From assembly GCF_003018255.1 (NCBI RefSeq), contig NZ_CP027440.1: DNA of 64,000 nucleotides, one strand, 5' to 3'. The notes beneath the pieces are model-generated. The model was not told where the DNA came from. It saw only the letters and a program-made list of their open reading frames with translations, and ran no database searches. Every line of letters starts with the position of its first letter. Position 1 is the first letter of the stretch. This DNA is from Escherichia coli (lineage in GTDB: Bacteria; Pseudomonadota; Gammaproteobacteria; Enterobacterales; Enterobacteriaceae). This document shows, piece by piece, positions 21,065 to 63,413 of this stretch. The position numbers and the translations under genes are program-made.

Positions 21065-21245
21065 GCACACCCCGCGCCGCTGAGAAAAAGCGAAGCGGCA
21101 CTGCTCTTTAACAATTTATCAGACAATCTGTGTGGGCACTCGAAGATACGGATTCTTAACGTCGCAAGACGAAAAATGAATACCAAGTCTCAAGAGTGAA
21201 CACGTAATTCATTACGAAGTTTAATTCTTTGAGCATCAAACTTTT

Positions 21246-22948: not shown

Positions 22949-23132
22949 CTTGCTGGTTTGTGAGTGAAAGTCACCTGCCTTAGTATCTCAAAACTCATCT
23001 TCGGGTGATGTTTGAGATATTTGCTCTTTAAAAATCTGGATCAAGCTGAAAATTGAAACACTGAACAACGAAAGTTGTTCGTGAGTCTCTCAAATTTTCG
23101 CAACTCTGAAGTGAAACATCTTCGGGTTGTGA

Positions 23133-59320: not shown

Positions 59321-60910
59321 TTAATGGCGGAAGTGGCGCATGTCGGTGAAGAGCATCGCAATACCGTGCTCGTCGGCGGCGGCAATCACTTCGTCATCAC
59401 GGATAGAACCGCCAGGCTGGATTACGCAGGTCACACCCGCAGCGGCGGCGGCATCAATACCGTCGCGGAACGGGAAGAACGCGTCAGAAGCCATCGAGGA
59501 ACCTTTCACTTCCAGGCCTTCATCGGCCGCTTTAATACCGGCGATTTTTGCGGAGTACACGCGGCTCATCTGGCCCGCGCCAATGCCGATGGTCATATTG
59601 TTTTTGGCATAGACAATGGCGTTGGATTTCACGAACTTCGCCACTTTCCAGCAGAACAGCGCATCACGCAGTTCCTGTTCGGTCGGCTGACGTTTGGTGA
59701 CGACGCGCAGTTCTTCTGCACCGACCATGCCCAGGTCGCGATCCTGAACCAGCAGACCGCCGTTAACACGTTTGAAATCAAGACCCGGAACACGCTCGCC
59801 CCACTGACCGCAGGTCAGGACGCGTACGTTCTGTTTGGCGGCGGTGATTTTCAGGGCTTCTTCGCTGGCGGACGGCGCAATAATCACTTCAACAAACTGA
59901 CGAGAAATGATGGCCTGCGCGGTTTCCGCATCCAGCTCGCGGTTAAAGGCGATAATGCCGCCGAATGCGGAGGTCGGGTCGGTTTTGTACGCGCGATCGT
60001 AAGCATCAAGAATGGAATTGCTGATAGCCACGCCGCACGGGTTGGCGTGCTTCACAATCACACATGCTGGCTCGGCGAACTCTTTCACGCACTCCAGCGC
60101 CGCATCGGTATCGGCGATGTTGTTATAAGAGAGGGCCTTACCCTGAACCTGGGTTGCGGTGGCAACAGAGGCTTCTTTCACGTTCTCTTCTATATAGAAG
60201 GCAGCCTGCTGGTGGCTGTTCTCGCCGTAACGCATATCCTGCTTCTTAATGAAGTTCAGGTTCAGCGTGCGTGGGAAGCGACCGGCGGCTTCTTTGCTTT
60301 CACCGTGGTAAGCCGGAACCATGCTGCCGAAGTAGTTGGCAATCATGCTGTCGTAGGCGGCGGTATGTTCAAAGGCTTTGATAGCGAGATCGAAACGGGT
60401 TGCAAGCAGAAGCGATCCTTCGTTGGCATCCATCTCTTTAATGATGGCGTCGTAGTCGCTGCTCTTCACCACGATGGCGACATCTTTATGGTTCTTGGCG
60501 GCAGAGCGCACCATCGTCGGGCCGCCGATATCGATGTTCTCAACCGCATCTTCCAGCGAGCAACCTTCACGGGCAACGGTCTGGGCGAACGGATACAGGT
60601 TAACAACCACCATATCGATAGGCTGGATCTGATGTTCTTCCATAATGGCATCGTCCTGGCCGCGACGGCCCAGAATGCCACCATGTACTTTCGGATGCAG
60701 GGTCTTCACGCGTCCATCCATCATCTCCGGGAAACCGGTGTAATCGGAAACTTCGGTTACCGGCAGACCTTTTTCTGCTAACAGACGGGCTGTGCCCCCT
60801 GTAGACAGCAGCTCCACACCGCGTGCGGAAAGTGCCTGGGCGAATTCGACGATACCGGCTTTGTCAGAAACACTGAGCAGAGCGCGGCGGACTGGACGAC
60901 GTTGTTGCAT
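59321..60910 (-). CDS. purH: Bifunctional AICAR transformylase / IMP cyclohydrolase PurH (529 aa)
   Basis: [80 protein letters not shown]. Confidence 0.97.
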
Positions 60911-61017
60911 GGTAAATCCCCTGGATTTGACTATTACAGAGAGCGTTAGCTGAATTTTTCGCGAAAAACTCAGCTAACGCCCCTAACGGGGCATCCTTAT
61001 TTTTCGCCCGCATTGTA

Positions 61018-61033
61018 ACGAAAACGTTTGCGC
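61018..61033. promoter_or_regulatory. PurR-box-like operator upstream of purHD
   Basis: ACGAAAACGTTTGCGC (reverse complement GCGCAAACGTTTTCGT) is a close match to the recalled pur-box consensus ACGCAAACGTTTTCTT; about 108 bp upstream of the purH start. Confidence 0.5.
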
Positions 61034-61204
61034 AACGCTCGCGAATTTTTCTCTTTCAATGGTGATCACAATTTTGACAGTGGCTACCGTGGGAAAAATA
61101 CAGAAATTACATTGATGATTGTGGATAACTCTGTGCGTAAAAAGGTATAAAGCGGGGTTTTGCTGGGGAATGCAGCAGTCAGTCATTTTTATGCAATTTT
61201 TCTA

Positions 61205-61232
61205 TTGCGACCTGCGGAGAACTCCCTATAAT
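61205..61232 (+). promoter_or_regulatory. rrnE P1 promoter
   Basis: -35 TTGCGA (61205-61210), 16-bp spacer, -10 TATAAT (61227-61232), GC-rich discriminator GCGCCTCC, AT-rich UP-like tract upstream. Confidence 0.75.
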
Positions 61233-61314
61233 GCGCCTCCATCGACACGGCGGATGTGAATCACTTCACACAAACAGCCGGTTCGGTTGAAGAGAAAAAT
61301 CCTGAAATTCAGGG

Positions 61315-61343
61315 TTGACTCTGAAAGAGGAAAGCGTAATATA
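61315..61343 (+). promoter_or_regulatory. rrnE P2 promoter
   Basis: -35 TTGACT (61315-61320), -10 TAATAT (61338-61343), followed by boxA TGCTCTTTAACAATTTATCA. Confidence 0.7.
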
Positions 61344-61526
61344 CGCCACCTCGCGACAGTGAGCTGAAAGCCGCGTCGCAGCTGCTCTTTAACAATTTAT
61401 CAGACAATCTGTGTGGGCACTCGAAGATACGGATTCTTAACGTCGCAAGACGAAAAATGAATACCAAGTCTCAAGAGTGAACACGTAATTCATTACGAAG
61501 TTTAATTCTTTGAGCATCAAACTTTT

Positions 61527-63229: not shown

Positions 63230-63413
63230 CTTGCTGGTTTGTGAGTGAAAGTCACCTGCCTTAGTATCTCAAAACTCATCTTCGGGTGATGTTTGAGATA
63301 TTTGCTCTTTAAAAATCTGGATCAAGCTGAAAATTGAAACACTGAACAACGAAAGTTGTTCGTGAGTCTCTCAAATTTTCGCAACTCTGAAGTGAAACAT
63401 CTTCGGGTTGTGA

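Follow-up and report, generated by a model that had tools for sequence, protein, structure and literature searches.

Two palindromes between purH and rrnE of Escherichia coli probably form a conserved RNA hairpin element of the purHD leader

The DNA considered here is the E. coli purH-rrsE intergenic region, in which purH is divergent from rrnE. All positions refer to the window, meaning the whole 64-kb stretch of DNA that was analyzed. In the MG1655 annotation the flanking genes are purH, on the minus strand, and rrsE/gltV, which belong to rrnE. A window position x converts to MG1655 coordinates as 4207532 + (x - 60910), which puts the long palindrome discussed below at 4207565-4207602. The segment 60880-61260 was present in 5,425 of 5,426 genomes and was 100% identical in several complete genomes. 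From the purH start through the PurR box, the window is identical to MG1655, and this same region is essentially invariant among 5,419 complete E. coli genomes. The features referred to throughout are as follows.

59321-60910, minus strand: purH coding sequence, 529 aa, with its ATG at 60910-60908
60917-60922, minus strand: purH Shine-Dalgarno region (AGGGGA), which the hairpin base precedes by 34 nt
60940-60944, minus strand: near-invariant GCUCU, immediately 3' of the long hairpin
60943-60980, minus strand: long leader hairpin, mRNA GCGUUAGCUGAGUUUUUCG/CGAAAAAUUCAGCUAACGC, with a stem of 17-19 bp and a CGCG apical loop
60979-60992, minus strand: small GC hairpin, mRNA GCCCC-GUUA-GGGGC, 5 bp
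61005, minus strand: predicted purHD transcription start, placed by promoter geometry at the seventh nt after the -10 hexamer
61012-61017, minus strand: purHD -10 hexamer TACAAT, which follows the PurR box without a gap and at a constant position in the purH loci compared
61018-61033, no strand assigned: PurR operator (PUR box) ACGAAAACGTTTGCGC, overlapping the spacer/-35 region of the purHD promoter
61120-61140, minus strand: double DnaA box TTACGCACA-gag-TTATCCACA, context only, outside the hairpin element
61205-61232, plus strand: rrnE P1 hexamers TTGCGA-16-TATAAT, context only
61315-61342: rrnE P2, context only

Read in the sense of purH, the order is therefore PurR box, TACAAT, approximately 14 nt, the small hairpin, the long hairpin, and finally 34 nt holding the Shine-Dalgarno sequence and the ATG. 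A previous sequence-only reading of this DNA had drawn attention to a long inverted repeat, to GCCCCTAACGGGGC, and to a near-consensus PurR box at 61018-61033, and we found each of the three where it had been placed. The box matches the symmetric PUR-box consensus ACGCAAACGTTTGCGT (16 bp, central CpG) at 14 of 16 positions and is the sole match with three or fewer mismatches in the window. Because 0.44 such matches are expected by chance per window, the sequence of the box alone is weak evidence. However, the purH-purD motif under the PurR ChIP-chip peak of Cho et al. 2011 (PMC3159470) is ACGAAAACGTTTGCGC letter for letter. The predicted box is thus identical to the published purHD operator, and the PurR site is both genuine and already described. 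According to a table from 2023, purHD is repressed by PurR and RbsR and activated by phospho-PhoP (PMC10100675), and RbsR is also named elsewhere (PMC5601083). The direct succession of PurR box and -10 hexamer is kept across the purH loci examined, and the overlap with the promoter resembles that of the PUR boxes of other pur operons. The PUR box and the palindromes are separate elements, as the palindromes lie farther downstream, in the predicted transcript, and lack the architecture of a LacI-family operator: the center of the long palindrome is TTTCG/CGAAA, unlike the AAAC/GTTT of such operators.

To compare the locus across species, we searched a single genome of each species with PurH residues 1-200, which returned 80 loci. 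Most Enterobacterales purH contigs stop a few hundred bases upstream of purH, and those running further hold rrn leader or 16S sequence there. Judging by these longer contigs, the divergent purH-rrn arrangement is old. The interval between the purH and rrnE promoters also contains the double DnaA box, which the earlier reading had missed. It consists of a perfect DnaA box, TGTGGATAA, at 61120-61128 and a second box-like 9-mer 3 bp away at 61132-61140. In E. coli, a 2024 study found strong DnaA ChIP-seq signal, in the form of a peak, at this site and dissected it by mutagenesis (PMC11317965); the site is also cited in PMC12371093. A perfect DnaA box occurred in 41 of 43 Enterobacterales purH-rrn intervals versus 1 of 37 other loci. 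Its orientation was always the same, and it lay exactly 98 nt from the rrn P1 -10 wherever the contig included P1. The distance to the PurR box was usually 41-43 nt, and Escherichia, Citrobacter, and Kluyvera carry an insertion of 55-65 bp between the two. This fixed register of DnaA box and rrn P1 across the order goes unmentioned in the available parts of both papers.

The arms of the long palindrome, as reported by a repeat finder, are 60943-60961 and 60962-60980. They comprise 19 + 19 nt without a spacer and are complementary at 18 of 19 positions (95%), resulting in a palindrome of 38 bp with one mismatch (A60954/C60969 on the plus strand). This is the longest hairpin-type repeat of the window, and across ten dinucleotide-preserving shuffles of the same DNA the longest arms measured 11-15 nt. 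Fold z-scores were -4.8 for the purH-sense strand and -4.3 for the other strand, with none of 200 shuffles being as stable. The second palindrome, at 60979-60992, overlaps the first by 2 nt. The sequence-only reading had started the long repeat at 60942 and had assigned it a palindromic loop. The repeat itself is real, although A60942 is unpaired and falls outside of it; likewise, the loop is indeed palindromic but is simply the center of one continuous 38-bp palindrome.

Both palindromes were assigned to the transcribed leader because they lie downstream of the PurR-box-overlapped -10 hexamer (61017-61012). With a start near 61005, as promoter geometry predicts, they would sit inside a purHD leader of about 95 nt. 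A search of the available literature and datasets returned no measured start and no 3' ends for this leader. The 5' end was reportedly mapped by primer extension in the 1990 purHD sequence paper, which is also said to have remarked on two mutually exclusive dyad symmetries in the 5' end of the mRNA. This placement displaces the previous view of the palindromes as promoter or operator DNA upstream of purH. That view had itself listed a transcription start upstream of the palindrome as counting against it, and the predicted start does lie there, which bears on that part of the list only. Purine and rRNA control elements had furthermore been described as interleaved, whereas we find them to be neighbors only. 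The P1 hexamers are at 61205-61232, roughly 210 bp separate the end of the palindrome region (60992) from the rrnE P1 -35, and the PurR box is about 170 bp from the same -35.

In the purH-sense mRNA, the A60954/C60969 mismatch of the DNA becomes a G.U wobble. The small hairpin abuts the long hairpin with no spacer, and 2 nt are common to the small hairpin and the 19-bp version of the long stem. Pairing of GCUCU with GGGGC could extend the long stem. The hairpins start about 14 nt from the predicted 5' end in E. coli and much farther from it in some Yersinia. Rare polymorphisms among E. coli genomes are found in the apical loop, at unpaired leader positions, or as C-G to U.G changes, and natural variants disrupt the center of the palindrome. 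The element is single-copy, with one locus per genome in 5,419 E. coli genomes; the two places returned by BLAST reflect the palindrome matching itself. A pairing between GCGAAAAA at the 5' end (61000-61007) and UUUUUCGC in the hairpin was also considered. As the apex is unconserved, this pairing is limited to E. coli and E. albertii, and we deemed it incidental.

We next turn to conservation. At 35 purH loci from Enterobacteriaceae, Erwiniaceae, and Yersiniaceae, the PurR box and -10, the small GC hairpin, and the long hairpin follow one another in the same order. The base of the long hairpin is near-invariant from Escherichia to Yersinia (CGUUAnCUGA...UCAnnUAACGCUCU), whereas its apex is freely replaced between species, such that the hairpin spans 34-98 nt with pairing retained. 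In Escherichia the apex is UUUUU-CGCG-AAAAA, and in some Enterobacter-like genomes it is GGGAUC...GAUCC. Cedecea, Erwinia, Pantoea, Serratia, Yersinia, and Rahnella have 20-60 extra nt at the apex that are rich in CUCUAUAUAGAGAG-type motifs. The small hairpin has conserved arms (GCCCC-loop-GGGGC) and differing loops, and pairing is preserved in its arm variants GCCUC/GAGGU and UCCCG/CGGGA. Between the hairpin base and the ATG the spacing is held to 34-56 nt, as compared to anything from about 30 to beyond 150 nt between the promoter and the hairpin. In Photorhabdus, Edwardsiella, Budvicia, Rosenbergiella, Acerihabitans, and Mangrovibacter, the PurR box and -10 are present, but the hairpin is a different one or none can be recognized.

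A covariance model built from 20 Enterobacteriaceae leaders found one match per locus, on the purH-sense strand, at most loci of Enterobacteriaceae, Erwiniaceae, and Yersiniaceae. In the 64-kb window it gave a single sense match of 98.6 bits on the minus strand, with a palindromic echo of 35 bits on the plus strand. Nothing rose above noise at the Vibrio, Aeromonas, and Pasteurellaceae loci, and the only marginal match was to a Tolumonas locus (E = 2.4).

Compensatory change was quantified in a gap-free alignment of the basal stem comprising 32 distinct sequences and 21 pairs. Standard pairs accounted for 88.2% of cells versus 80.2% when partners were shuffled (0 of 500 shuffles reached the observed value), where the shuffle statistics overstate independence since the aligned sequences are phylogenetically related. 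Both sides had changed in 12 of the 21 pairs, and there were 56 double-change cells versus 20 expected, with the caveat that such pair counts are somewhat biased because the anchors of the basal stem were chosen partly by pairing. Covariation was 0.268, in comparison to at most 0.136 when the 3' partners were slid by 1-3 columns. Pair 5, for example, occurs as G-C, C-G, U-A, and U-G. In roughly half of the species, pairs 6 and 8 carry mismatches (C.C, C.U, G.G), which implies that the perfect stem of E. coli is a derived state.

The alignment also indicates which strand is folded. Basal-stem cells with G.U outnumbered those with A.C by 41 to 15, and pair 10, corresponding to the A60954/C60969 mismatch of E. 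coli, is G.U in 15 sequences. As G.U wobbles are tolerated and A.C is avoided, the folded strand appears to be the purH-sense strand. The sense hairpin was more stable than the antisense hairpin in 26 of 33 species; Serratia silvae and Rahnella bruchi were among the exceptions, their expanded apex folding much more stably as antisense than as sense RNA. GCUCU is kept as a sequence, given that its 5' partners GGGAC (Yersinia) and GGGAA (Rahnella) are uncompensated. Taken as a whole, we consider it very probable that the palindromes represent a conserved purH-sense RNA hairpin element of the purHD leader. The function of the large palindrome had previously been called unclear from sequence. Comparison across species now shows a conserved purH-sense RNA hairpin, and for its mechanism we can offer a proposal.

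Several familiar categories of element were searched for and rejected. Rfam returned no relevant family match in the window or in 32 related loci. Its microRNA-precursor matches to the hairpin (mir-725 with E = 0.023, and mir-4716 at a Yersinia locus) are spurious, and its sub-threshold Ysr197 matches correspond to the rrn promoter and leader. A riboswitch was rejected since the perfect E. coli duplex has no ligand pocket and no Rfam family matched. In 20 further gamma-proteobacterial purH loci, Rfam likewise detected neither a ZTP riboswitch nor one of any other kind. The ZTP (pfl) riboswitch of other phyla is similar in being a cis-acting RNA in a purH leader, but differs from the purHD duplex, which has neither ligand pocket nor pseudoknot. 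An intrinsic terminator or attenuator was rejected because the long hairpin is followed in the purH sense by GCUCUCUGUAAUAG, with no U tract, and the terminator scan found none on the minus strand. Small ORFs overlap the palindrome region, but the minus-strand ORF begins upstream of the predicted transcription start, and the apex length changes between species are not multiples of three. Separately, the only terminator-like call was the small hairpin on the plus (antisense) strand, with a displaced U run.

We propose that the two hairpins constitute a conserved leader module acting in cis as a stabilizer or insulator of the purHD mRNA, and we assign this statement as a whole a probability of roughly 0.4. 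Under this proposal, about 55 of the 95 leader nt would be locked into autonomous helices. Rho needs a long unstructured C-rich stretch, and too little single-stranded RNA would be left for it to load. Because structure hinders RNase E in its scanning from the 5' end, the hairpins would obstruct this 5'-end-dependent step. With the hairpins in place, the leader would also be kept from base-pairing to the ribosome-binding site. After PurR derepression, a stable, translatable, full-length purHD mRNA would be expected. In about 28 of 34 species, the Shine-Dalgarno sequence was as open or more open in the native leader than when the upstream part was dinucleotide-shuffled. A positive reading of this test is that the hairpins keep the leader off the ribosome-binding site. 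The stabilizer mechanism, which combines this accessibility with the background on RNase E and Rho, is put forward tentatively.

The proposed role has precedent in leader hairpins of the ompA type, which are obstacles to RNase E scanning and are likewise stable and autonomous with an accessible Shine-Dalgarno sequence. Similar to 5'-UTR stabilizers, the purHD hairpins keep their position relative to the ribosome-binding site and are free in apex sequence. Unlike ompA-type stabilizers, they are not at the extreme 5' end, and both their helix base and their 3' flank show sequence conservation. They are not a classical 5'-terminal protective stem-loop, because they start about 14 nt from the predicted 5' end and farther in some Yersinia. 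Moreover, a pure structural obstacle leaves the near-invariance of the helix base and GCUCU unexplained. This near-invariance suggests a putative sequence-specific reader of the helix base.

Such a reader leads to an alternative explanation, in which a trans-acting factor docks sequence-specifically on the helix base and the 3' GCUCU flank. Near-invariance of CGUUA...UAACGCUCU and the uncompensated changes opposite GCUCU (GGGAC, GGGAA) favor docking, as does the conserved G.U wobble, which is often a recognition feature. Even so, a literature search yielded no candidate protein or sRNA, and a search of literature and datasets found neither CsrA nor sRNA partners of the purH leader; we regard docking in general as unlikely. 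Its most concrete version is a nut-like hairpin followed by a boxA-like CGCUCUU that recruits NusB/NusE/SuhB. The rrn leaders have a hairpin and then boxA, and purH has the same order. Flanks reading CGCUCUUA or CGCUCUUUA, which match the core sequence of the lambda and rrn boxA, occur in Erwinia, Pantoea, Serratia, and Rahnella. The purH element thereby shares with the rrn and lambda nut sites and the suhB BoxA a hairpin followed by CGCUCU(U) and a location in a leader, here next to an rrn operon. Unlike them, it fails the BoxA consensus in E. coli and its relatives: none of 32 sequences contains a perfect BoxA, with the best at 10/11. The E. coli sequence GCTCTCTGTAA scores 8/11 against the gamma-proteobacterial consensus GYTCTTTAANA (Baniulyte et al. 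2017, PMC5725501) and has C for T6, position 6 being one of the two changed in a suhB mutant without SuhB recruitment (PMC5725501). Nor is there significant similarity between the purH and rrnE leaders, whose local alignment was no better than that of shuffles (p ~0.35). An rrn-type boxB-boxA-like docking site for Nus factors or another sequence-specific RNA-binding protein, composed of CGCUCU(U) and the helix base, therefore seems a long shot.

The duplex could alternatively be a substrate of RNase III, whose cleavage would create a new 5' end that alters the stability or translation of purHD mRNA. In E. coli the length and perfection of the helix suit this type of substrate (about two turns of dsRNA): the duplex is 17-19 bp, or about 24 bp if stacked coaxially on the small hairpin or extended via GGGGC/GCUCU. 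A long continuous helix has remained under selection although the apex sequence was repeatedly replaced. Single-cut phage RNase III sites carry internal loops, to which the mismatches that many species have at pairs 6 and 8 are similar. The RNase III leader hairpins of pnp, rnc, and adhE are likewise long near-perfect duplexes just upstream of a ribosome-binding site. What separates purH from them is that the available parts of the RNase III datasets do not report cleavage in its leader. In the part of Gordon et al. 2017 available to us, the only site in the purH-rrsE interval is at 4207874, in the rRNA leader, rather than within 4207565-4207602, and the available text of Altuvia et al. 2018 makes no mention of purH. 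In addition, we know of no requirement of RNase III for sequence conservation at the base of a helix, which this element nonetheless displays. On balance, we judge RNase III processing to be improbable.

Two further explanations would have the element act as a switch or as DNA. In the former, GGGGC pairs either with GCCCC, leaving the Shine-Dalgarno sequence free, or with GCUCU, releasing CCCC to pair with the GGGG of the Shine-Dalgarno sequence and turning purH off. The minimum free energy fold of the E. coli leader, and of many relatives, is this "off" form with its extended stem and CCCC:GGGG pairing. GGGGC and GCUCU are both near-invariant, and the mutually exclusive dyad symmetries reportedly noticed in 1990 would fit as well. 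We nevertheless demoted the switch because native leaders hide the Shine-Dalgarno sequence no more, and usually less, than shuffled leaders. GGGGC and GCUCU also show no covariation, with 5' changes going uncompensated, no flipping signal is apparent, and an internal loop or bulge that might serve as a ligand pocket is absent from the E. coli stem. For these reasons, we give the switch little credence. At the level of DNA, which comes nearest to the sequence-only reading, the palindrome might be an operator for a dimeric protein or a cruciform absorbing negative supercoils from the divergent rrnE promoters, which are very strong, and act on purH, rrnE P1, or both. This would agree with a 38-bp palindrome having a perfect center and an A/T-rich middle, with the rrn-adjacent location conserved wherever the element is found, and with the better folding of the other strand in a few species. 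However, a conventional dimeric DNA operator is excluded by the spacing between the conserved half-sites, which varies from ~16 to ~80 bp between species. Both the surplus of G.U over A.C and pair 10, with its conserved G.U, favor purH-sense RNA, natural E. coli variants break the center of the palindrome, and the element is located downstream of the predicted purH start, over 200 bp away from rrnE P1. Within the available part of the literature on purHD regulators, PurR, RbsR, PhoP, and DnaA are not reported to bind the palindrome. A DNA-level role is accordingly very unlikely. It could also be argued that the palindrome has no function and arose by chance or as a relic of a REP, ERIC, or MITE-like element, given that many such elements reside in bacterial intergenic regions and a REP-like hairpin exists elsewhere in the window. 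Its length is far beyond chance, there is one locus per E. coli genome instead of dispersed copies, and it holds the same position in three Enterobacterales families with compensatory changes. We find a lack of function hardly credible.

The PurR and DnaA boxes were already known, and what is new is the presence of conserved, uncharacterized leader hairpins in a classic operon. As a structural stabilizer and nothing else, the element would be of routine interest. If factor docking were true, the output of purine synthesis would be tied to how available the rRNA antitermination machinery is, complementing the DnaA and PurR inputs of the intergenic region beside rrnE. Because the element is small, single-copy, and located in a genetically tractable organism, the question is directly testable. 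Control of purHD is usually described only at the promoter, by PurR, RbsR, PhoP, and, since 2024, DnaA. A conserved leader module implies an extra layer after initiation, whether mRNA stability, processing, or factor binding, and this layer could explain purine-gene regulation beyond PurR.

Besides the long hairpin of the purHD leader RNA, the window contains the following features:

61120-61128 and 61132-61140, minus strand: double DnaA box, TTACGCACA-gag-TTATCCACA, between the purH and rrnE P1 promoters
61169-61405, plus strand: sub-threshold Rfam match to Ysr197 ("Yersinia sRNA 197"), spanning the rrnE P1-P2 promoter/leader
21103-21114 and 23023-23034, then 61384-61395 and 63304-63315: rrn boxA sets, each a leader GCTCTTTAACAA and a spacer GCTCTTTAAAAA, all exact matches
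246-284: REP-like palindrome, CTTATCCGGCCTAC…GTAGGCCGGATAAG, the second-longest hairpin repeat of the window

The two sets of exact boxA sequences lie ~40 kb apart, and the window therefore holds a second rRNA operon in addition to rrnE, presumably rrnB. The Ysr197 match, at 122 bits, falls short of the family's gathering score of 167, and Rfam returned further sub-threshold matches to this family at other purH loci from our 80-locus PurH scan of one genome per species (L005, L024, L026, L028, L032, and L036). The Ysr197 family appears to model the leader of rrn operons, not an sRNA in its own right.

Within the purHD leader, a 9-nt direct repeat, GCGAAAAAU, occurs on the minus strand at 61000-61008 and 60954-60962, with the first copy at the 5' end inferred for the mRNA and the second in the 3' half of the apex, the freely varying tip of the long hairpin. 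Among the purH leaders compared, this repeat was limited to Escherichia, and it may be left over from the origin of the Escherichia-type apex. The expanded apices of Serratia, Yersinia, and Rahnella (loci L028, L029, and L033-L037) carry a palindromic CUCUAUAUAGAGAG / UCUAUAUAGA motif once or twice. In two of these species, Serratia silvae and Rahnella bruchi, the antisense fold of the apex is the more stable one, by ~14 kcal/mol. Such an apex could be an element of its own, at the DNA or RNA level, enclosed within the long hairpin. Photorhabdus caribbeanensis has a different GUUAU…AUAAC hairpin in place of the Escherichia-type hairpin. The purH leader of this species (L038) also contains an insertion, …GAATCCCTGGGAGCATAGCGAACTATGTGACCAGGGTGAGTG…, ~100-170 nt upstream of the ATG, that resembles an ERIC/IRU repeat.

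The double DnaA box has already been published as a strong ChIP-seq site for DnaA in the upstream region of purH (PMC11317965). The present comparison adds its conservation and spacing across Enterobacterales. A perfect DnaA box was present in 41 of the 43 Enterobacterales purH loci compared. Its distance to the PurR box was usually 41-43 nt, and an insertion of 55-65 bp separates the two sites in Escherichia, Citrobacter, and Kluyvera. The distance from the perfect box to the rrn P1 -10 hexamer was always 98 nt in Enterobacterales loci with P1 on the contig. This constant register raises the question of whether DnaA might act on rrnE P1 in addition to purH.
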